Source: Cyanobacteria bacterium LVE1205-1
Lineage (GTDB): Bacteria > Cyanobacteriota > Cyanobacteriia > CAIUCS01
Direction of reading: 5' to 3'
NCBI GenBank assembly: GCA_041879355.1
Contig: CP089922.1
Span: 462,172-526,171 of the forward strand
Length of the DNA stretch: 64,000 nucleotides
Positions 3,670-42,281 of the stretch are shown one piece after another. The position numbers and the translations under genes were made by a program. The notes under the pieces are model-generated. The model saw only the letters and a list, made by a program, of their open reading frames with translations. It was not told the DNA's origin and did no database searches. Position 1 is the stretch's first letter; each line of letters opens with the position of its first letter.

Positions 3670-4870
3670 CTACACCCCATCCCACGAAAACCCAAAAACT
3701 CCTAACTTCTCTCGTAATAACTGTCCTTCCGGTGACCGCTGAGTTTCATATAAACTAATGGCCTGCTTGAAAGCCAAAAAACTATCTCTAACCTTACCTT
3801 GTTTAAAAGAACAACCCCCAGGTTTTGGTAAGCTTCAGCATATTCAGGCTGTAGGGCGATCGCCTTACGATACTGGACTATCGACTCAGGGAGTAGCCCC
3901 ATAGCTTTAAGAGCAGCCCCCAAATTAAAATAACCCACTGCAAAATCCGGTGCAATGGCAACCACCTTTTCATACAACATACAAGCTTCAGGCAAATCTC
4001 CCTTCCCCTGAAGTAAATTAGCCCAGTTATGGAGGGATCCTAACCGTAGGCGGGGGGAATCGGTTGTTTCCAAGCCATCTGGTAGTGAAATAAGGCTGAA
4101 TCAAATTGGTTTAATTCACTGTAGAAGGTGCCCAAATGAAAATGTAATTCATACTGAACAGCAGAATCAGCAACGGAAACCAATTCCAGCCCCCGATGTA
4201 ACAATCCTAATCCCCTTTCCCGATTTCCTATTTCCCAGCATAAGGCTCCAAATTTACTGTAGAGATAAGCATCATTGGGGTTATCGATTAAAGCCTGTTC
4301 TAAAATATCCTTTGCCCGATTAAACTTATCCTTACGATTGATGCGTTCGGGTTCATAACCTTTATGAAGTAAAGCAACGTCCTGAATGCAGCCCACCCGC
4401 CAGTGGGACTCCTGGTTCAAAATCACTTGAATGCTATCATCTACCAGTTCATGGTAGGGTCGATGAAAAAATATATCAGTTCTGTTGCGGAATAGCCGTG
4501 ACACTAGAGAATAGGGACTTTGATGGGAACCCAATTCATGGCGGAGTAAGTTGATCAGCAGGTAATCATCTTGTTGCATAGCCTGACGCAGTACCGGAAT
4601 CATATCAGGCACCACCACTTCATCGGCATCAAGTACTAATATCCAATCCCCTTTTGCATAACTGAGGGAGTGGTTACGGGCAGCGGCAAAGTCAGACCGC
4701 CAAGGGTAGGAATAAACCTGTACACCCCATTGTTGACCAATTTCAATGGTGGCATCAGTGGAACCCGTATCCACCAGTATCACTTCATCCGCTAACCCTT
4801 GAACGCTGGATAAACAACCAGGAAGTAACTCCGCCTCGTTTTTAACAATCATACATAGGCTTAGCTGCAT
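3670..4870 (-). CDS. Family 2 glycosyltransferase with C-terminal TPR repeats; frameshift at G6 run near 4045 and probably another near 3795, so the 3' end is uncertain
   Basis: N-terminus has GT2 motifs (CMIVKNEAELL, VDTGSTD, LDADE); downstream frames encode TPR repeats. Confidence 0.65.
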
Positions 4871-10297: not shown

Positions 10298-11293
10298 TCA
10301 AATCCGATTTAGTGCATCCAACACCGCGCCATGGATGGCACGGTTGCAAGCCACAATTCCAGAATTATTGACTAACTTGGAGCTACACCCAAAGTCCAAC
10401 CGGTTTCCCCGTGCATCAGTTACAATTCCTCCAGCTTCTTCAACAACGATGGCTCCAGCAGCATGATCCCAGATATTTTCCCGATAGTTGGGTTCTTTTT
10501 TCCAAATTAATCTGGTGTAGAGGGCGGCCTCTCCACAGGCGACAGCCCCATATTTTACCTGACTGTCTAACTGTAAAGGGGGTTCCCCCAGCCCAACTGC
10601 CTTAGCCAGTGCCCGTTGTCGTGGTAAATCACCATGCTCTGTTTCAATACTTTCTGTCAGTCGTAGTATAACTCCTTGCAAATCAGCGGATGCTCCAACC
10701 GGATAGGTTTGATGATCAGTTAGGGTGAATACCCGGGTACCTTGCCCACGGACAGCCACAAAAATAACCCCATGGACTATCCCTAGTCTGGGACTGACAG
10801 GGTGGGGGATGGAGAGTGCCGGACAACCCAATATGCCAACTTTAACTTCTCCTCCCTCTATCAACGCTAAAGCGATGGCATATTGGTCACCCCGAAGGTA
10901 GCCCTTGGTTCCGTCGATTGGGTCTAACGTCCAATATCGTTCCTGTACTTGGGCTCGTCCCAAATTAATGGATTCAACCACGGTAGATGGAGCAATACTT
11001 GGAAATACCAATTGCACATAGTTCGTTACCTGTTGCCAGTGTTCTGCCATTTCCGGTTGGAGCAATAAAGCCCCGCTTTCTTCTCCCACAATAGGGTCAT
11101 CGGGAAAATGGTCATGGATAATCTGACAAATCACAGCTTGAGCCGCAAAATCAGCGATAGTGACTGGACTGCTATCTGGTTTGGTAATTGCTTGTCCTGG
11201 TCGTTCCATTCGTACTCTTTCACAAATAGTCACCGCTGACTTTACGGCGGATAGGGCAATGGTTTGTTCTAAATCGTAGGAGAGGGGTGACAT
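10298..11293 (-). CDS. Inositol monophosphatase family protein, likely 3'(2'),5'-bisphosphate nucleotidase (CysQ/HAL2-like)
   Basis: 331 aa; motifs EESG, WTLDPIDGTKGY and a later GG..DAR region typical of the IMPase superfamily. Confidence 0.7.
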   Translation of the reverse strand: MSPLSYDLEQTIALSAVKSAVTICERVRMERPGQAITKPDSSPVTIADFAAQAVICQIIHDHFPDDPIVGEESGALLLQPEMAEHWQQVTNYVQLVFPSIAPSTVVESINLGRAQVQERYWTLDPIDGTKGYLRGDQYAIALALIEGGEVKVGILGCPALSIPHPVSPRLGIVHGVIFVAVRGQGTRVFTLTDHQTYPVGASADLQGVILRLTESIETEHGDLPRQRALAKAVGLGEPPLQLDSQVKYGAVACGEAALYTRLIWKKEPNYRENIWDHAAGAIVVEEAGGIVTDARGNRLDFGCSSKLVNNSGIVACNRAIHGAVLDALNRI

Positions 11294-11327
11294 AGGAAGG
11301 ATTAGCAGTGTTTTTAGGGTGGATAGT

Positions 11328-12823
11328 TCACTGGGATGAGGTGGGTAGCCAGGTTACAACAGTGGTGCCGGGAGCAGTGGAACAACAAAGTTTGCCGGGA
11401 CTAAAAACTTGTAACGTGCCCCCCATTCGGCTCAAGAGTTGGTGGGCGATCGCCATCCCTAAACCAGTACCTGGAATATTACCTTGAGACTGTATACCCC
11501 GATAATAGGGCTCAAATAAATGGGGGAGGTCTTCCGGTGGAATCCCAGGACCGGTATCACTAATGGCCACTGCCAGAAAGAGGGGACTATTTTTGCCAGA
11601 TAATCCATCAGGATGACCAGATGCAGATTGGATTTGGATTAGACCATTAGTGGGGGTATATTTTAAGGCATTTTCTATCAGATTGTTCAGTACCTCACCC
11701 AAGGCTTTACCATTTACCTGCACATCGGGCAAACCTTGGGACAGACCAATTTCTAAGGTTACCCCCCGTTCTTGGGCGATGGCACCGGCAGTCATCAACA
11801 GGGGAGATAACACACTATCTAGATTGATGGGCATCGTGGTCAGAGAATTTCCACTCAGCCAATCAGTCACTAAATCAGGATTTTCTTCTGACTGCTCCCG
11901 TTCAGGTGAGGATGGCAACGGGTCTAGAAAGTTGGAATAATTTTGGAGTGACGGATTGAGCCGCAATGAAGATTTGATATCCACTGCTTCTTTAGTGACA
12001 TGCTCAATTTGGGTCAGTAGTTCTTGCAAACGTTCACTTTCCCGTACAATACTTACTGCCACTTCCTGGTTGGGGTCATAACTCACCAATCGCTTCATCA
12101 ACAGCTTGCCAAAGGTGCGTAAAGCAGTGAGAGGATTCCGAAATTGATGTAACAAGGCATCCATTAAAAAACGATGGTGGCGTTCTTGTGACTGCCGTTG
12201 ATCTCGGATTTCCATGAGCCACTGGGTACGCTGTTCCAAAACATATCCAAGGGCTAAAGTACGGGCAATATGGTCTACTTCCTTCCGTTCAGTAGGGTTC
12301 CAGGGTCGGTCATTTCGGCAACAGACCAGTAGTCCTTTAGCGGCACCCTCGTGTACTAAAGGGAGTACGATCTGGTGGTCAGGATTCACTGATTCATTCA
12401 GGTACGTCAGAGTTGACCCAGAAAGGGGCTCCACTGAATCTATATAAACTGGTTGTTCAGAATCTAATGAGGAGCCTGATTCCGGGTTCACTGACTGTTC
12501 CCGGTTCCAGGCAGAGGTGGGTAAAATTGAATCCACTGCCCTTTGGAGGGAGACAGGGGAACTTCCCGATAATGAATGGGTGGACGGGGCAGGGGGAAGG
12601 GGACGGAAGACAGGGGAAGGTAAGTTGGGGGGATCCAAGGATGGGTCACTGACCACTCAACAGCAGATTCAGGATGGACGATCAATGGAATTAATTCGGT
12701 ATCCCCTCCATTGACAAGGTCTTTCGCTAAATAAACAATACTGAACGAAGCCCCCAATCCTTGAGCCAAGATAACTTGCGATCGGCATAGGGAAATAAAT
12801 TCCGGGCTGGGGGTCAGTAGCAT
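11328..12823 (-). CDS. Sensor histidine kinase; frameshift at G6 run near 12638
   Basis: H-box region HRFLMDALLHQFRNPLTAL, C-terminal HATPase with GTGLGMAI; upstream ORF 12488..12823 continues the N-terminus in another frame. Confidence 0.75.
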
Positions 12824-13264
12824 GGGAATGAGGAAGAAAAGGGGTAAATCATTAAAGTCAGTGGGGAAGATGGGTATAAGGATGGGATTAAACGTGATTC
12901 TCCATCCTTATATCCATACTTCCCCTATCAATCCATGGTGAATGATTGCCAAACTAAAATAATGGGTAATTAAATGATACCAATCTTAGTGAACCCAGTC
13001 TTTACCGATTAGAAAAACTCCCAAGGGATTGTTCATTCCCTCCTGGGAGTGGGAACCATAGGGTTAGGTTCCCAGTACTTTTCTTTTGGGGGATGTCACC
13101 ACTCTCCTTCGTCCTTGATTGTATGTCCCCATAACTGGTACTAGACTCCATGGAAGGAAATAGTAGGATACACCTGGTGGTTCGTTGCCAACCTACGCCT
13201 TGGAAATGAAGAGTATCAGGATATAATCAAGAAAAAGAGTTCAAACCATTATCGGTACTCAGAG

Positions 13265-18634: not shown

Positions 18635-18804
18635 GCCTCCCCTAAATACTATAGTAATCCTAAGCGATGAGAATTAACAATTTTCTTGAAAAAAATTTGA
18701 AAAAAATTTGTCGGTACCCTTTGATTCCCTTTCCCCTCCATGAAAGATGGTAATACTTAGTCTTTGTCTTAAAGCCCTTTAGTCCTTGTTTTATCATAAA
18801 ACCC

Positions 18805-19554
18805 ATGGTTATCGTAGCCAGCTTTTACAAATTTTTCCCCTTTCCTGACTCCATTCACCTCAGATCCGCTTGGCTCGCTTACTGTCAGGTTCAACAGATT
18901 CGGGGTACCATCCTCATGGCTCCGGAGGGGATTAATGCCACTATTTCAGGAAGTCGTGATGCAATCAATCAGGTGCTTCAGTATATTTGCAGCCATCCCG
19001 GTTTAAGTACATTAAAGCATCAGGAAAGTGTTTGGAATGTTCATCCCTTTGATCAGTTAAAGGTTAAGTTTAAACAAGAAATTGTTACCTTAGGAATGCC
19101 CACAGTTGATCCTAGTCAAGGTACCGGTGAGTTTGTTCATCCTTCAGATTGGAATGCTATTTTGACTGATCCAACTGTCACCGTGGTTGATACTCGTAAT
19201 ATCCATGAAGTGGAAATGGGTACTTTTTTTGGGGCAATCAATCCACAAATGTTTTGTTTTCGTCAGTTTCCCTATTATGCTAAGCAACAGTTAATGCCGT
19301 TGCAGTCAAAAAAAGTTGCTATGTTTTGTACCGGAGGAATCCGATGTGAAAAAGCCTCGTCCTATTTATTAAAGGAAGGTTTTAAACAGGTGTATCAATT
19401 AGACGGTGGCATTATTCATTATTTACAAACAGTCTCAAAATCAGACAGTCTTTGGCACGGGGATTGTTTCGTTTTCGACCAGCGCAATCATCTTAATCTT
19501 GAGCATAGGTCAACTTGGTTTGGGGTAAGTAGCCTTCCAAATCTGGTTAACTGA
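18805..19554 (+). CDS. trhO: Rhodanese-domain protein, tRNA uridine(34) hydroxylase TrhO-like (UPF0176)
   Basis: N-terminal VASFYKF, rhodanese active-site CTGGIRCEK. Confidence 0.7.
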   Translation: MVIVASFYKFFPFPDSIHLRSAWLAYCQVQQIRGTILMAPEGINATISGSRDAINQVLQYICSHPGLSTLKHQESVWNVHPFDQLKVKFKQEIVTLGMPTVDPSQGTGEFVHPSDWNAILTDPTVTVVDTRNIHEVEMGTFFGAINPQMFCFRQFPYYAKQQLMPLQSKKVAMFCTGGIRCEKASSYLLKEGFKQVYQLDGGIIHYLQTVSKSDSLWHGDCFVFDQRNHLNLEHRSTWFGVSSLPNLVN

Positions 19555-19606
19555 CAAAAGTTGTACGCCCTCACCCCTAACCCCTCTCCCAGGGGGCGAG
19601 GGTGGA
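19546..19606. repeat. Repeat family B, truncated copy (left half of the element at 40930..41077)
   Basis: CTGACAAAAGTTGTACGCCCTCACCCCTAACCCCTCTCCCAGGGGGCGAGGG nearly identical to 40933..40984. Confidence 0.75.
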
Positions 19607-19647
19607 AGTAGTTCCATTTCTGTTAAGATATGTGTGCGCTTGCCCTG

Positions 19648-21030
19648 CTATAAACCGAGTATAGCCAGGTTACCAATGTCAAAAAGACCAGCCATACAAC
19701 CAATCATTAATGTAGCTAAAGTTGCTGCCCACAGAGCTTTCCATCCAATTTCAACTATTTCAGACTTACGTTGAGGAACCAACCCTACCAGCCCCCCCAC
19801 AAATATACCAACCGAAGGAATATGGGTAAAACCGCAAAGGGCATAACTCAAGATTAATAGGGCGCGATGACTCAATACCCCTTGATTGGACAAATTAGCC
19901 AATTGTAAATAAGCAGGGATTTCAGTTTCTAATACCCTTTGTCCTAGTAACACAGCCCCAGCCCAAAGTTCAGTCCATTGGAATGAGATTCCTAGACAAA
20001 AGGTCAAGGGTAAAAAGAAAACCCCCAATATGTTTTGAATGCTAACTACTTGGAAAAAATTACCGATGAACTGTAACCCTACGTTAGGGCTTTGTGCTAA
20101 GGAAGCAAAGTTAAGGAAAACCAGATTGACTAAGGACACCAATCCAAGGACTGCAATCAAAATGGCGGCGATTGTAACAGCCAGTTTAACTCCTTCCATG
20201 GCTCCTTCAATCACACTGTCCATGGGGCTAATCCGTAGAGTATCCAAACTGTTTTCATCAATTTCTGGTGGTAAACTTCCCAATGTTTGAGGCAACTCTC
20301 GTTCTGGTACTAATAGTTTAGACATGACAAAACAGGCAGGAATCGCCATAAATGAAGCAGATATTAAATGTCCGGTAATCCCGGGAAAGACCGGTCTTAA
20401 AATACTTGAATAAAGTGCCAATACTGTAGATGCGATGCTTCCCATGCCAGATGCTAAAATGGTGCATAATTCACTACGGGTCATGGCAGATAAAAATGGT
20501 CTGACGACTAAGACTGATTCAATACCAACAAAAATATTCGCTGCTCCACTCAATGATTCTGCCCCGCTTAAGTACATTGAACGACAAAATACATGGGCAC
20601 AAAAATTAATGATGGGTTGTATGACCCTCAAATGATAGAGCAACGCAATGAAAGAAGAAAAAAAGATAACGGACGGCAGTGCTCTAAATGCAAAAATATA
20701 CCCTAAACTAATGTGATCTGGGCTGAGGCGATCGCCCGGAATGGGTACATAAGGGGAGGTCAAGGCTCGGGCAATCCAGCGACCTGCTAAAACTGGACCA
20801 GGGGTAATAGTTGGATTAGGAACCAATAGAGAGCCAAAGACAAACCGCGAACCAGCCTCTGCTGAGTCTAAAACTGCATTAACACCATTATTCAGTGCTG
20901 AAAATAGGATACGAGTTGGCGGTACAGTAAATACCAGAAGTGCTAAAACAAACTGGATACCAATGCCCCAGGCAATTACACGCCAAGGGGGCGGCTGCGA
21001 TCCTCCGAACCTAACCATGCAATTCCACAA
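19648..21030 (-). CDS. Concentrative nucleoside transporter, NupC/CNT family
   Basis: 460-aa polytopic membrane protein with FVFGSLL motif; true start may be downstream of 21030. Confidence 0.6.
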   Translation of the reverse strand: MWNCMVRFGGSQPPPWRVIAWGIGIQFVLALLVFTVPPTRILFSALNNGVNAVLDSAEAGSRFVFGSLLVPNPTITPGPVLAGRWIARALTSPYVPIPGDRLSPDHISLGYIFAFRALPSVIFFSSFIALLYHLRVIQPIINFCAHVFCRSMYLSGAESLSGAANIFVGIESVLVVRPFLSAMTRSELCTILASGMGSIASTVLALYSSILRPVFPGITGHLISASFMAIPACFVMSKLLVPERELPQTLGSLPPEIDENSLDTLRISPMDSVIEGAMEGVKLAVTIAAILIAVLGLVSLVNLVFLNFASLAQSPNVGLQFIGNFFQVVSIQNILGVFFLPLTFCLGISFQWTELWAGAVLLGQRVLETEIPAYLQLANLSNQGVLSHRALLILSYALCGFTHIPSVGIFVGGLVGLVPQRKSEIVEIGWKALWAATLATLMIGCMAGLFDIGNLAILGL

Positions 21031-21238
21031 AGCAGTACAATCCCTAGTGCTGAAATTAGATTTAAACCCAAGTTCATAGTAGTCTCCGGAACATCTAACC
21101 CCATTTAGATAGTTTATTCACTGTTTCTGGTATTATCCTATTTTCCCAAGAGCAAGCTTGAAAATACAGCAGAAATAATGGGTTAAGGCTTAATGCCTAA
21201 CCCATCCTACCGTATTGTATAGACTTAGGTTGGTAACC

Positions 21239-29927: not shown

Positions 29928-30821
29928 ATGCGTCACGCCATTCTCATAGTATCTCTCATTCCCAGCCTCTGCTTCCTTGGTTGTGCCAACGAACCTAAAC
30001 TTGAGAGTTCCTCACTTGCTCCCACCACTGTCACCCAATCTGTAATTGAACCAGAGGGTAAACAGGCGAATACAAAGACAGACCTGCCCGGTGTTCAACT
30101 AAATCTGGTAAAAAAAGCTCAACTAACCCTTGTAATAGAGAATATGGATCAGACGATCCAGGCAATTACCAGATTAATTCGTACTCGACAGGGTGATATT
30201 CTCAACTTGGAAAAACTGTATCCCACCGAACCAGGAAGCCGTCAAACTGCTTCTTTGAGTATCCGCATTCCCCAGCAACAATTGGATGACGTTTTAACTC
30301 AATTGACCAAACTAGGGGTGGTACGGCAGCAATCTCAAACCGCAGAAGATGTCTCGAGTCAGTTAGTGGATTTTAAGGCACGATTACGGAACTTGCGTCG
30401 TTCCGAAGAGATGCTATTGCAAATTATGGGGAGATCGGGTTCGGTGGGGGATGTGTTAAAGGTTAGCCAAGAACTGAGTGGGGTTAGGGAAAGTATTGAG
30501 CAAATTGATGGGCAGTTAACCAATTTGCAATCTCAGGTGACCTACTCCACGATTACGATTGCATTAGAGCAACAGACCATAACAACCCCCTTCCAAAAAC
30601 ATCCTGGTGGCATCTTAGTTGAAAGTTGGACAACTGCCACCCGTTCAGTGGTGGACTTTACCTTAGGATTAGCGCAACTGACCCTCTGGATTCTTGCATA
30701 TAGTCCCTATCTTCTTATAACGGGGGGTGGAGTATATTGGATAAAAACCCGTTATCTTCCCCGGCTCAAGGAAAAAAGTCCATCATCAGTCCACCACTCC
30801 CAATCCAAAGGGAAGCTATGA
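29928..30821 (+). CDS. DUF4349-like lipoprotein with C-terminal transmembrane segment
   Basis: Start at internal Met giving lipoprotein signal ...SLCFLGC; coiled-coil central region; hydrophobic C-terminus. Confidence 0.45.
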   Translation: MRHAILIVSLIPSLCFLGCANEPKLESSSLAPTTVTQSVIEPEGKQANTKTDLPGVQLNLVKKAQLTLVIENMDQTIQAITRLIRTRQGDILNLEKLYPTEPGSRQTASLSIRIPQQQLDDVLTQLTKLGVVRQQSQTAEDVSSQLVDFKARLRNLRRSEEMLLQIMGRSGSVGDVLKVSQELSGVRESIEQIDGQLTNLQSQVTYSTITIALEQQTITTPFQKHPGGILVESWTTATRSVVDFTLGLAQLTLWILAYSPYLLITGGGVYWIKTRYLPRLKEKSPSSVHHSQSKGKL

Positions 30822-30912
30822 ATGGGTATTCTTTTTCATTTGACACAAACTAGTTTACAGTGTCCTCCCCGACATCAAAACATTAGACCCTCAGTCTTTA
30901 GACCTGAGAGTC

Positions 30913-31458
30913 TCATTTACGTTCCATACTTTCTAAATATTCTTTATACCCTAGGCTTTCCAGATCAACCTGTTTTTCCATCACTTTACTAGTTAGCTCA
31001 TGGCGATAACATTGCACCTTCACTAATAGGTCTGGTTGATGGGATGCTAAAATCTGTATTGCAAGCAGTCCAGCATTATGAGCATTACCAATGGCTACGG
31101 TAGCCACTGGAATACCATTAGGCATTTGGACAATGGAATATAACGAATCAACCCCCTGCAAATAACGGGTAGGTATGGGCACGCCAATTACAGGTAAAGG
31201 AGTTAGGGCAGCCACCATGCCTGGTAAATGAGCAGCACCTCCCGCACCGGCAATAATCACCTTTAAGCCTCGACGGTGGGCATTTTGGGCATAGGAAACC
31301 ATACGGTCAGGGGTACGATGGGCTGAAATAATAGCCACTTCAGTGGGCACTGCAAATCTTTCACACACAACAATAGCCGCTTCCATCGTGGGTAGGTCGG
31401 AATCACTACCCATAATGATGCCAATCGATGGTTCTGGGAGAGATGTCATGGATGACAT
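30913..31458 (-). CDS. purE: N5-carboxyaminoimidazole ribonucleotide mutase PurE
   Basis: [41 protein letters not shown]. Confidence 0.9.
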
Positions 31459-31505
31459 AATGAGTCCATAGAATTAATCGAACCAAAAACCGCCCTTAAT
31501 CTGAG

Positions 31506-31949
31506 TTAACCACGATTTTTGATTAACATTACTTCAATGATTTGAGATGCCAATTCATCGGAGATATTGAGTAAAGTCGCCAACTTTGCTAAAAAAGCCT
31601 CTTCTTCCTCTGTTTCAATACTATCAGCTAACACTAGGTCAGCCGCAATGGCAAATGCAGTTGTCTTTAAGTCTGAAGAGATTACCGTTGTTGATTGTAG
31701 GAGGGAATCAACCCCTTCATTTCTCAAAATATTCAATAATTTATCAAACAACTTACGCATTGATTCATCTGATGCAGTTTGAAATAACTTCATCCGTGAC
31801 AAGGAAGAAGACATGGCTTTTGTCTCTTCAGCCGATAAATAACCATCGGAAGCAATTGCAGCTAATGCAATGGAAGCGATCGCCTCAGCCTCTGGGTTGA
31901 TTTCATCCTTGATATCCCCTTGTAAACCAAACGCTTGTAGTAATCCCAT
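31506..31949 (-). CDS. TerB-like (tellurite resistance family) protein
   Basis: 147 aa, acidic helical protein with two TerB-like repeats (AIAS/ADxxL, EE..FL..LA..L.IS). Confidence 0.45.
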   Translation of the reverse strand: MGLLQAFGLQGDIKDEINPEAEAIASIALAAIASDGYLSAEETKAMSSSLSRMKLFQTASDESMRKLFDKLLNILRNEGVDSLLQSTTVISSDLKTTAFAIAADLVLADSIETEEEEAFLAKLATLLNISDELASQIIEVMLIKNRG

Positions 31950-38471: not shown

Positions 38472-40029
38472 TTAAAAGACTGGGGATTCTAGAGGCTCTA
38501 TTTCTTCATCCGTTTGTATCCTTGGCGGCGGAAAGTCTAGGGATCGTCCATAAATATCAGTGAAATACCGCAGGCGATGGCAAATTTCCTCACATTCTAC
38601 TGCCTCCGTGCGATATCGCCAATCCCAATTACCAGTGGCAGTCCCAGGGGTATTCATGCGTGCATCTGTCCCCAGTCCTAAAATGTCTTGAAATGGGAAT
38701 AAAGCCCAGTTGGCTACAGAACTCATGGCGTGACGGATCAAATCCCAATGAATACCATCGAAATTATTGTAACCTAAATAACTGCGGATATGGCGTTGTA
38801 AATCGTCGGATCGACTGTAAAACCAGCCCACAGTGGTGTCGTTATCATGGGTGCCTGTATAGACAATGGAGTTTTTCCGATACTGAAAGGTCAGATAGGG
38901 ATTTCGGGCATCTGAATCGAAGGCAAACTGCAAAATATTCATGCCGGGGAAATCAAAGCGATCGCGCAGGGCTTCCACCTCCGGGGTAATCACCCCTAAA
39001 TCTTCAGCCATAATGGGCAGGGAGCCTAGTTTTTGGGCTAAGGTTGTAAACAATTCCTCCCGGGAGCCTGCACCCATTCTCCATTTATAGCAGTGGTTTC
39101 CCCCTTTGGAACTGCCCAATAGGATTCAAAGCCACGAAAATGATCCACCCGGATCACATCTACAATCTCTAACATGGATTTAAACCGCTGTACCCACCAC
39201 TTAAATTGATTTTTTTTCAGATGCCTCCAGTTATAAACTGGATTGCCCCACAACTGTCCCGTTTTGCTGAAGTAATCAGGGGGAACACCTGCCATCAGCG
39301 CCACTTCTCCCGTTTTTTCATCCAAGTGAAAGTTTTCTGGATTTGCCCACACATCTGCACTATCGTGGGCTACATAAATGGGGATATCCCCAATAATGGT
39401 AATGCTTCGGTCATTGGCATAGGTTTTTAAGGCATTCCATTGACAATGGAATTGATATTGCAAAAATTGGTGATAAAAAATCTCATCAGTAAATTGTTTG
39501 CGGTATAAGGCTAAGGTTTCGGGTTTACGCTGCCGTAGATTTGGATCCCATTGATACCAGCTTTGATTAGGGTGAGCATACTTACACGCCATAAATAGGG
39601 CATAATCATCCAGCCAACTGGATTGATGGATGCAAAATTGTTCAAACTGTTTTTGAATTGCTGGGGTTGCCTGTTGCCGGAATCGGGCACATGCTAACCG
39701 AAATAACCCATCCTTAAAGGCAATCACCCCATCAAAATCAATATGATCCAGCGGAAAGTCAGGACTATTTGCCAGTTCAGATTTATCCAGCCATCCCTGC
39801 TCTTCCAATAATTCAGGACTAATGAGTAGGTGGTTACCGGCAAAGACGGAATAGGAAAGGTAGGGGAATTACCATATCCCGTAGGTCCTATGGGCAGGAT
39901 TTGCCAATAATGTTGATGACTGGACATCAAAAAATCAATGAACCGATAGGCAGATGAACCAAAATCTCCAATTCCATATGGACTGGGGAATGAACTGGGA
40001 TGGAGTAAAATTCCACTACCTCTGGGCAT
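38472..40029 (-). CDS. malQ: 4-alpha-glucanotransferase (disproportionating enzyme, GH77); split into three ORFs by apparent frameshifts
   Basis: ORFs 39724..40029 (GILLHPSS...GIGDFG), 39038..39808 (IIGDIPIYVAHDSADVW, VDHFRGF), 38472..39119 (EDLGVITPEV) are colinear. Confidence 0.85.
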
Positions 40030-40789: not shown

Positions 40790-40891
40790 ATGAGCTATAA
40801 CAAAGGCTATAGATGCCTATACTCCCTTACTATTGATTTAGTATTTGTCACAAAGTACCGCAAAAAGATAATTGACAAGGGGATCCTGTAA
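40790..40891 (+). pseudogene. IS200/IS605-family TnpA N-terminal remnant (33 codons)
   Basis: MSYNKGYRCLYSLTIDLVFVTKYRKKIIDKGIL resembles the TnpA N-terminus (HLVFVTKYRRKVL pattern); truncated, followed by repeat family B element. Confidence 0.4.
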
Positions 40892-40929
40892 AGATTGCAC
40901 GAAATCGTTGCTAATACCTGTGAACCTGG

Positions 40930-41077
40930 TTGACTGACAAAAGTTGTACGCCCTCACCCCCAACCCCTCTCCCAGGGGGCGAGGGGAGCCGATCCACCCC
41001 TCCCGGTTCCCTCTCCCATCGGGAGAGGGCTAGGGTGAGGGCTTTCGGGGTTTTGGCTGAGAAGTTTTGTCAGTCAA
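40930..41077. mobile_element. MITE-like element (repeat family B, full copy) with terminal inverted repeats
   Basis: TTGACTGACAAAAG at left, TTTTGTCAGTCAA at right; internal palindromes CCCTCTCCCAGGGGGCGAGGG and CCCTCTCCCATCGGGAGAGGG; left half repeated at 19546..19606. Confidence 0.7.
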
Positions 41078-41140
41078 TCAGGCTTCTCACCAATCCCCAC
41101 TCGCCAGGGTACTAATTCAAACCTAGTCAACAAATCCAAT

Positions 41141-41172
41141 CAACAAAAAAGGTGTGGACAATGTCCACACCT
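41141..41172 (-). terminator. Rho-independent terminator downstream of psbA
   Basis: Perfect hairpin GGTGTGGACA/TGTCCACACC followed on the minus strand by a T6 run, about 30 nt after the psbA stop. Confidence 0.7.
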
Positions 41173-41198
41173 TTTGTCATTCATCCCATCAACTCAAA

Positions 41199-42281
41199 TT
41201 AACCATGGATAGCAGGGGCAACCATTGCCACAGGCGCTACCTCACCCGCTGCCAAATCCAAGGGGAAATTGTGCGCATTCCGCTCATGCATCACTTCCAT
41301 CCCTAAATTCGCACGGTTGATAATATCCGCCCATGTATTAATCACACGACCCTGTGCATCAATCACTGATTGGTTAAAATTAAACCCATTCAAATTGAAT
41401 GCCATGGTACTCACTCCCAATGCAGTAAACCAAATCCCAATCACTGGCCACGCACCTAAGAAAAAGTGCAATGAACGTGAATTGTTGAAACTCGCATACT
41501 GGAAAATTAATCGTCCAAAATAACCATGGGCAGCAACTATGTTGTAAGTCTCTTCCTCTTGCCCAAACTTATATCCATAGTTCTGTGACTCACTCTCCGT
41601 CGTCTCACGCACTAACGATGATGTCACCAATGAACCATGCATCGCTGAAAATAAACTACCTCCAAATACACCCGCTACCCCTAACATGTGGAAAGGATGC
41701 ATCAATATGTTGTGCTCCGCCTGAAACACAATCATAAAATTAAATGTACCTGATATACCTAATGGCATCCCATCCGAAAACGAACCCTGTCCAATGGGAT
41801 AAATTAAAAATACAGCAGTCGCCGCTGATACTGGCGCACTGTACGCAACACATATCCATGGACGCATCCCTAACCGATAACTCAATTCCCATTGACGCCC
41901 TAAATAACAAAATACGCCAATTAAAAAATGAAAAATTACTAACTGGTACGGTCCACCATTGTATAACCACTCATCCAATGACGCAGCTTCCCAAATCGGA
42001 TAAAAATGCAACCCAATCGCATTACTAGATGGAACTACCGCACCAGATATAATATTGTTCCCATACAGTAAAGAACCCGCTACCGGTTCCCGTATACCAT
42101 CAATATCAACTGGCGGCGCAGCAATAAATGCAATAATGTAACAAACAGTCGCTGATAGCAAGGTAGGAATCATCAGTACCCCAAACCAACCTACATATAA
42201 TCGGTTGTTAGTACTGGTAATCCAGCTACAGAATTGCTCCCATGCGCTAGCGCTCTGGCGCTGTTGCAATGTCGTTGTCAT
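41199..42281 (-). CDS. psbA: Photosystem II D1 protein
   Basis: 360 aa; essentially full-length D1 including C-terminal processing extension. Confidence 0.97.

Follow-up and report, generated by a model that had tools for sequence, protein, structure and literature searches.

The 64,000-nucleotide stretch of DNA analysed here (hereinafter, the window) contains a palindromic repeat close to the psbA gene, a part of which recurs at trhO, and the question raised by this locus is whether the repeat is a mobile element and, if so, what moves it and what it carries. As set out below, the sequence at 40926–41081 is very probably a non-autonomous MITE whose movement depends on a DDE transposase supplied in trans by an IS of approximately 1.3 kb, which belongs to the IS4 family and is IS10-like. 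This conclusion is based on terminal inverted repeats (TIRs) of 17–20 bp identical to those of the IS (CTGRTTGACTGACAAAA), on 9-bp target-site duplications, and on the presence or absence of the element at orthologous sites of genomes that are approximately 98% identical. The description "MITE-like" given to the repeat in an earlier note was therefore well founded, as the ends are those of the ~1.3-kb IS4-family IS, 9-bp duplications are found in the family, and filled and empty sites both occur. The coordinates of the features are presented in Table 1.

Boundaries of the Repeat Downstream of psbA

The earlier note had described a 148-bp element with terminal inverted repeats. The repeats themselves were found, TTGACTGACAAAA at 40930–40942 being the exact complement of 41065–41077 with a mismatch at base 14, whereas the proposed ends were not the true ones: the inverted repeat reaches 4 nt beyond 40930 and 41077 on either side (CTGG… and …TCAG). 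Because more than 60 aligned related copies have CTG…CAG termini, the true element was taken to span 40926–41081 (156 bp), running CTGGTTGACTGACAAAAGTT…AAGTTTTGTCAGTCAATCAG. The TIR pair CTGGTTGACTGACAAAAGTT/CTGATTGACTGACAAAACTT agreed in 18 of 20 positions, and the terminal 14-mer, with up to two mismatches allowed, occurred five times in the window versus an expected 0.59, whereas none of the shuffled sequences gave five occurrences. The G+C content was 61% in the element versus 44.5% in the window. Predicted folding of the psbA copy as ssDNA gave −44 kcal/mol (z = −5.7), and as RNA, −84.6 (z = −6.0). The GC-rich internal palindromes reported previously were confirmed at 40950–59/41033–42, 40964–73/40977–86, and 41009–17/41021–29. 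It should be noted that the CTG…CAG ends, the BoxC/TM_ECO identity of these palindromes, and the existence of an autonomous partner had been overlooked.

Table 1. Positions of the element, its parts and relatives, and neighbouring features.
Feature	Sequence	Position	Strand	Remark
Empty target site TTGCCAAAC	Window	12946..12954	.	Filled in relatives
trhO without C-terminal ~70 codons	Window	18805..19554	+	Frame ends in MITE end
Truncated MITE copy, left 60 nt	Window	19543..19602	+	TIR and first BoxC hairpin
Junction of ~704-bp deletion	Window	19602..19603	.	Specific to window genome
Leftover ISAs1-family transposase pseudogene fragment	Window	19603..19647	-	~45 nt
IS200-type tnpA remnant	Window	40790..40925	+	N-terminal ~45 codons, in-frame stop; adjoins MITE left end
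Full-length MITE, psbA copy	Window	40926..41081	.	156 bp; both ends intact, no target-site duplication
Left TIR CTGGTTGACTGACAAAAGTT	Window	40926..40945	+	Matches IS/MITE consensus CTGRTTGACTGACAAAASTT
Spurious 61-codon ORF reading through MITE	Window	40930..41115	+	
Inverted BoxC/PIT/TM_ECO pair	Window	40950..41042	.	~93 bp; inverted repeats I10, I12, I13
Exact TM_ECO pattern match CCCTCNCCC-N3-6-GGGNGAGGG-N3-GGGNGAGGG	Window	41009..41041	+	
Right TIR, reverse complement CTGATTGACTGACAAAACTT	Window	41062..41081	-	Alignment to family ends
psbA intrinsic terminator hairpin	Window	41147..41175	-	Outside MITE; MITE 65 nt further downstream
psbA	Window	41199..42281	-	
MITE subterminal block				CCCGAAAGCC
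MITE copy with 19-nt insert	L097	4148..4321		
MITE copy with 19-nt insert	L092	2323..2498		
MITE copy with 19-nt insert	L086	1629..1806		
MITE copy with 19-nt insert	L110	2695..2868		
IS copy	Synechocystis PCC 6803 pSYSM, NC_005229.1	~65314..66634		Frameshifted transposase
IS copy	Acaryochloris marina MBIC10699 pREC4	30462..31822		Duplication CTAAGACAC(C)
IS copy	Pseudanabaena sp. ABRG5-3	158965..160274		

The very stable predicted fold, the location 65 nt beyond the psbA terminator, and the 61-codon ORF might be taken as signs of a functional structured RNA, a second psbA terminator, or a small protein gene (ORF 40930–41115). A function of any of these kinds is extremely improbable, as no Rfam family was matched at gathering or E-value thresholds (generic hairpin matches were far below the gathering scores), a canonical psbA terminator is already present, and copies of the MITE were found in both orientations at unrelated sites. 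With regard to the ORF, 152 of its 186 nt (82%) are MITE sequence, no Pfam family was matched, and in the 96%-identical MITE copy of contig L026, which belongs to a close relative (see below), indels split it into pieces of no more than 30 aa; these data, together with the occurrence of both orientations, uphold the previous opinion that it is probably not a gene. ORFs of this type are repeat artefacts, which should be borne in mind during annotation.

Elements Sharing the Terminal Repeats and Their Autonomous Partner

When species-representative genomes were scanned with the left-end 20-mer, Petrachloros mirabilis ULC683 gave 11 loci and a Nodosilinea MAG gave three. A scan of metagenomes with CTGRTTGACTGACAAAASTT revealed at least 120 stretches, many of which were located at contig ends, as is expected for a dispersed repeat. 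A scan of viral contigs gave no TIR matches, and a literature search for TTGACTGACAAAA found no occurrence in a microbial context, the string matches being human, rat, and chicken primers. When left and right ends were paired, 67 elements were obtained among the matches listed, all with CTG…CAG termini, and the paired-end elements among these matches formed two size classes, namely, 110–380 bp and 1268–1368 bp. Perfect 9/9 direct repeats were found at approximately 18 independent short elements among the matches listed; perfect duplications were recorded for L002 (GAGATTATC), L005 (GGTATGGGG), L015 (CCAAAACCC), L039, L061, L080, L118, and L134.

Twelve copies of the BoxC-type MITE from several lineages were aligned from end to end with a mean column identity of 81%, and, judging from this alignment, the BoxC-type MITEs of at least four sub-lineages form one homologous family. 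The same ends also enclosed unrelated, non-BoxC interiors in L039, L080, L118, L134/L111, L145, and L146. In one sub-lineage of the BoxC-type MITE, a 19-nt insert, GTAGCTTGCTTCCCGGAGG, was located inside the outer GGGTGAGGG stem (four copies, Table 1); very small inserted repeats have been described in cyanobacteria, and this insert may be an example of them. Meanwhile, in P. mirabilis (L001 5070–5366, as well as L004 and L008), a second MITE was nested in a BoxC hairpin loop, giving a 297-bp form. The ends of the nested MITE were CTACTGTGTACACACAA…TTGTGTGTACACTGTAG, and its flanks, GCCCTTGGG and CCCCTTGGG, represented a duplication matching in 8 of 9 positions. The 177-bp form common in Petrachloros seems to have arisen from this 297-bp composite by deletion.

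The IS of approximately 1.3 kb that have the same 17–20-nt ends as the MITE contained a single transposase ORF of 390–400 aa, and all 18 transposase ORFs listed were unbroken (390–422 aa). The transposases matched Pfam DDE_Tnp_1 above the cut-off, while the best NCBIfam model was transpos_IS4_2 (NF033591; E-value from 1e-33 to 1e-40), with scores of 114–139 bits, i.e., below the curated IS4 cut-off of 152. They carried the motifs ALDTS, ADRGF, and Y-x2-R-x3-E-x6-K (YGLRFDIEENFLDDK); of the 18 ORFs listed, 10 had the latter, and the others had Q in place of K and, in two cases, also F in place of Y. Perfect 9-bp duplications bordered the IS copies L066 and L101, and a relative of the IS in Leptolyngbya BL0902, the ends of which had diverged, was bordered by a perfect 9-bp duplication as well. 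Copies of the IS were also located on plasmids of Synechocystis, Acaryochloris marina, and Pseudanabaena (Table 1). The combination of YREK, 5′-CT ends, 9-bp repeats, and a length of 1200–1350 bp characterizes the IS10 subgroup of the IS4 family (De Palmenaer 2008, Table 1, PMC2266710). Since the size, the 5′-CT ends, the 9-bp repeats, and YREK fit that table, the partner was assigned to the IS4 family as an IS10-like element. It shares with the prototype IS10R/Tn10 an uninterrupted ORF, DDE and YREK, 5′-CT, and 9-bp repeats, and its size, 1268–1368 bp, compares with 1200–1350 bp in the subgroup. In contrast to the subgroup, which is mostly proteobacterial (PMC2266710), the partner elements are cyanobacterial, with tblastn relatives on Deinococcus plasmids, and, unlike the curated IS4 transposases, their products stay below the NCBIfam cut-off and are labelled in RefSeq only as "transposase".

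The 17-nt IS end CTGRTTGACTGACAAAA was invariant across transposases that were only ~45% identical (L156–L159). Related transposases with 44–47% identity (tblastn) were abundant on Deinococcus plasmids and were also present in Methylomagnum, suggesting a cross-phylum group of IS for which the RefSeq label is just "transposase". A sequence search of the PDB with the partner transposase gave no meaningful match.

The identity of the MITE ends with the IS ends would also be expected if the MITE had arisen from the IS by internal deletion and still held pieces of the transposase gene between its ends. However, similarity to the IS ceases ~20 nt in from either end, the interior is a BoxC pair, and several unrelated interiors occur among MITEs with the same ends. 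Neither the 64-kb window nor the relatives' contigs (~100 kb) yielded a cognate transposase in a tblastn search with three transposases, and none was found near the solo ends in the 8-kb Petrachloros loci. An origin by internal deletion is thus very unlikely, and a MITE with an interior of another source, served in trans by the IS, is the reading retained here.

The BoxC Core

The core of the element consists of an outer stem, GCCCTCACCC/GGGTGAGGGC, around two CCCTCTCCC/GGGNGAGGG hairpins. The motif was identified by a full-text search for the core strings as BoxC/PIT/TM_ECO, for which an intrastrand triplex has been described (Holder et al. 2015, PMC4666352); the same motif is known as the G-quadruplex-hairpin HPG1 (Kaplan et al. 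2016, PMC5100583). A scan with the TM_ECO pattern, taken from PMC4666352, gave one match (Table 1) versus none in 100 shuffles, and the matching segment, 41009–41041, also fits the G-quadruplex motif G3N3G3N3G3N3G3. The partner arm on the minus strand departs from the pattern solely in its 5-nt second loop. One arm has CTA as its second loop and the other has GTTGG, whereas this loop is TTA in TM_ECO type A and CCG in type B.

When the element was compared by blastn with plasmids and E. coli genomes, the core (40949–41049) was matched and the ends were unmatched. Core matches were obtained in Enterobacter, Pantoea, Klebsiella, Azospirillum, Xanthomonas, Leptolyngbya, Pseudanabaena, and Kovacikia, as well as in 1535 of 5426 E. 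coli genomes. Homologous modules of ~85–105 bp from Enterobacter, E. coli, Leptolyngbya, Pseudanabaena, and Kovacikia had the common architecture GCCCTCACCCC-CCCTCTCCC-loop-GGGAGAGGG-spacer-CCCTCTCCC-loop-GGGAGAGGG-TTA-GGGTGAGGGC. Every BoxC-type hairpin found in the window and in the relatives' contigs sits within a copy of the MITE, while BoxC pairs devoid of the MITE ends were found in E. coli, Enterobacter, Pseudanabaena, and Leptolyngbya. Since MITEs with other interiors and BoxC pairs without the ends both exist, the BoxC pair is a separable module, which was either captured by the MITE or inserted into it.

Could the repeat be a plain BoxC/TM_ECO palindromic repeat that does not transpose, the TTGACTGACAAAA repeats either prolonging the palindrome or being there by chance? 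The exact published motif is present in the core, and BoxC pairs occur elsewhere without these ends. Nevertheless, the same ends enclose IS4-type transposase genes and MITEs with unrelated interiors, the 9-bp duplications lie exactly outside CTG…CAG, and filled/empty polymorphism was observed, so that this explanation is highly improbable and the palindromes are regarded here as the interior of a MITE.

As in E. coli, where inverted pairs are found at five loci, the BoxC motif here is an inverted pair, is intergenic, and is tied to local deletions and rearrangements. In contrast, it is enclosed here in a TIR-bounded element with target duplications, whereas Holder et al. (PMC4666352) reported that they had never encountered the motif together with transposons or transposase remnants. 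The same authors linked it to local genomic instability.

The following arrangements were recorded on cyanobacterial plasmids. In the Pseudanabaena galeata CCNP1313 plasmids (L160 and L161), BoxC pairs lie within annotated "DNA methyltransferase" ORFs of more than 4 kb; either cyanobacterial copies of the motif are not confined to intergenic DNA or these ORFs read through the repeat. A Leptolyngbya sp. BL0902 plasmid (L017 1501–1761) contains two tandem BoxC pairs ~165 bp apart without MITE ends, and an IS4-type IS of the partner group with diverged ends is located ~2.5 kb from them.

Filled and Empty Sites and the Deletion at trhO

No identical protein was on record for TrhO or for a 564-aa protein of the window. 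TrhO of the window belongs to a cluster of 99% identity in metagenomes, the next best match being ~60% identical. Comparison within the species was performed using 10 metagenome contigs carrying TrhO of this cluster, whose identity to the window was ~98% across some 20 kb. The species is represented in the samples JGI 3300019776, ENA ERZ28575044, and ERZ27292242.

The 9-nt site at 12946–12954, empty in the window, is occupied in contig L026 by a 110-bp single-hairpin derivative of the MITE (4031–4140) with TTGCCAAAC on both sides. The same site is also occupied in L029, a contig that starts within the MITE derivative. As read from the aligned contigs, this filled/empty polymorphism shows recent transposition in the lineage of the window.

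At the trhO site, the 10 contigs carry a full-length MITE of 154–155 bp bordered by the perfect duplication CTCCCAAAT. In the window, the copy at this site comprises 60 nt that are 96.7% identical to 40926–40985. A truncated second copy had been reported at 19546..19606; its existence is beyond doubt, and its correct coordinates are 19543–19602. That it recurs downstream of trhO is true only in part, as the trhO stop codon, TGA at 19552–19554, falls within the terminal repeat. The window segments 18800–19602 and 19602–21100 are collinear with L026 9996–10798 and 11503–13002, respectively, and likewise with the nine other contigs, which defines a deletion of ~704 bp. Its left breakpoint lies inside the BoxC core, directly after the first BoxC hairpin, and the lost DNA included the remaining part of the MITE, ~300 bp of AT-rich sequence, and most of an ISAs1-family transposase pseudogene. 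Since the MITE and the pseudogene are both truncated at 19602/19603, the window state is the derived one, and the trhO copy has no duplication because the deletion cut it.

In L026, the ISAs1-family pseudogene (11209–11560, minus strand) is located between the trhO MITE and a nucleoside-transporter gene, and its translation scored 90.5 bits with NCBIfam NF033564 (cut-off 70). The ISAs1 element was considered as a partner in view of this remnant near the relatives' trhO copy and was ruled out, as its ends are dissimilar; the partner is of the IS4 type. The ISAs1 remnant and the IS200 remnant at 40790–40925 place both MITE copies in patches of decayed mobile DNA.

TrhO homologues have 290–300 aa, whereas the alignment with the window protein covers residues 2–227 only, and the final 22 codons are unrelated to the homologues. 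All relatives carry the same 249-aa form; consequently, trhO may be inactive or shortened in the species.

Within the window, the repeat is found at two sites and target-site duplications were detected at neither (4/9 positions at psbA; truncated copy at trhO). This situation had been named in the earlier note as grounds for rejecting a MITE, and it is overturned by the relatives' full trhO copy with its duplication.

Flanks of the psbA Copy

The element had been placed between an IS200 tnpA remnant and the psbA terminator, and this was borne out by a match to Pfam Y1_Tnp (27 bits versus a cut-off of 23; profile positions 2–37 of 121) and by the terminator hairpin. The sequences adjoining the MITE, CCTGTGAAC and GCTTCTCAC, agreed in four of nine positions, i.e., there was no target-site duplication. 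A lookup of psbA for an empty site yielded several paralogous contexts, and the usable information was the boundary of the 3′ flank at 41083. In L021–L023, the 3′ flank of psbA is common with the window as far as this position, which is 1–2 bases from the MITE end; past it, these contigs have a 113-codon ORF that is missing from the window, whereas the window has the truncated IS200 remnant beyond the MITE. The common 115-nt 3′ flank suggests that one flank of the psbA copy is original and that the other was probably exchanged by rearrangement, and such an exchange would account for the lack of a duplication at this copy. Since psbA has several paralogues, the argument from the 3′ flank carries limited weight. 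The exchange may have occurred by recombination between copies or by an adjacent deletion or inversion promoted by the transposase. Adjacent deletions and inversions of this kind are known for IS10 and IS50.

The Y1_Tnp remnant adjoining the left end, together with the GC-rich palindromic nature of the element, could also indicate that the repeat is REP-like and is moved by a Y1 transposase of the RAYT/IS200 type. Y1 transposition generates no target duplications, whereas the family described here has duplications of 9 bp. In addition, the GTAG/CGTC tag is absent from the element sequence, and no Y1 gene lies near the trhO copy, the copy at 12946, or those in the metagenome loci; among the loci sampled, the remnant accompanies one copy only. 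The remnant breaks off at the MITE, and the flank is not collinear with the relatives, which points to a secondary junction. Service by a Y1 transposase is accordingly hardly credible, and movement by the IS4-family transposase is preferred.

Within one population (~98% identity), a fresh insertion, a core-initiated deletion truncating neighbouring pseudogene DNA, a probable exchange of the psbA flank, and a trhO frame ending in a MITE are brought together, illustrating how a genome is remodelled.

Proposed Mode of Propagation and Comparison with Known Elements

By analogy with IS10 and IS50, the transposase encoded by the IS would bind both ends of the MITE, excise it by a cut-and-paste reaction, and insert it at cuts staggered by 9 bp. 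The interior is not derived from the IS, and the BoxC/TM_ECO pair is either cargo or an element nested in the MITE. The core could adopt a hairpin, triplex, or G-quadruplex; triplex and G-quadruplex biophysics have been reported for the E. coli motif (PMC4666352, PMC5100583). Both window copies have changed after insertion, the trhO copy by the 704-bp deletion and the psbA copy probably by the exchange of its flank. No host function is indicated for the MITE, which is selfish DNA and generates structural variation.

The 110-bp single-hairpin collapse and the 177-bp and 297-bp forms in Petrachloros, although a small sample, suggest that the core is fragile, which agrees with the instability published for the motif. 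A more tentative proposal, to which somewhat less than even weight is given, is that the cyanobacterial BoxC pair was propagated as cargo of the IS10-like MITE, with its non-B-DNA core serving as a deletion breakpoint; the breakpoint cases considered were the 704-bp deletion at 19602, the 110-bp collapse, and the nested Petrachloros insertion. To our knowledge, the question of how BoxC is disseminated has stood since the 1990s. The connection of BoxC/TM_ECO with defined ends, a transposase family, and target duplications makes its spread testable, at least in cyanobacteria.

In other respects, the element is an ordinary representative of bacterial MITEs, and what deserves attention is its putative BoxC cargo. 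MITEs described in cyanobacteria include Nezha of Anabaena/Nostoc, the partner of which is ISNpu3 (Delihas 2011, PMC3184786), and MaeMITEa-h of Microcystis (Kaneko 2007, PMC2779907). Similar to Nezha and MaeMITE, the element studied here is small (156 bp, bacterial MITEs being shorter than ~600 bp) and non-coding, shares its TIRs with an IS, and has direct repeats, a stable predicted fold, and filled and empty sites between close relatives. The direct repeat quoted for one copy of Nezha has 10 bp, CATTATCTAC (PMC6042816), versus 9 bp here, the two elements being compared by their descriptions.

Neighbouring Genes

Comparison of the window segment 41083–41198 with L019–L025 revealed at least four genomic contexts with a near-identical psbA coding sequence, in which homology stopped at varying points, 30–115 nt beyond the stop codon. 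This pattern agrees with the presence, in the lineage, of several psbA paralogues that gene conversion has homogenised. On the other side of the element, malQ, encoding 4-alpha-glucanotransferase (Pfam Glyco_hydro_77; window 38472–40029, minus strand), was represented by three overlapping ORFs spanning profile positions 1–51, 68–310, and 304–463, the split being due either to two frameshifts in a pseudogene or to sequencing errors.
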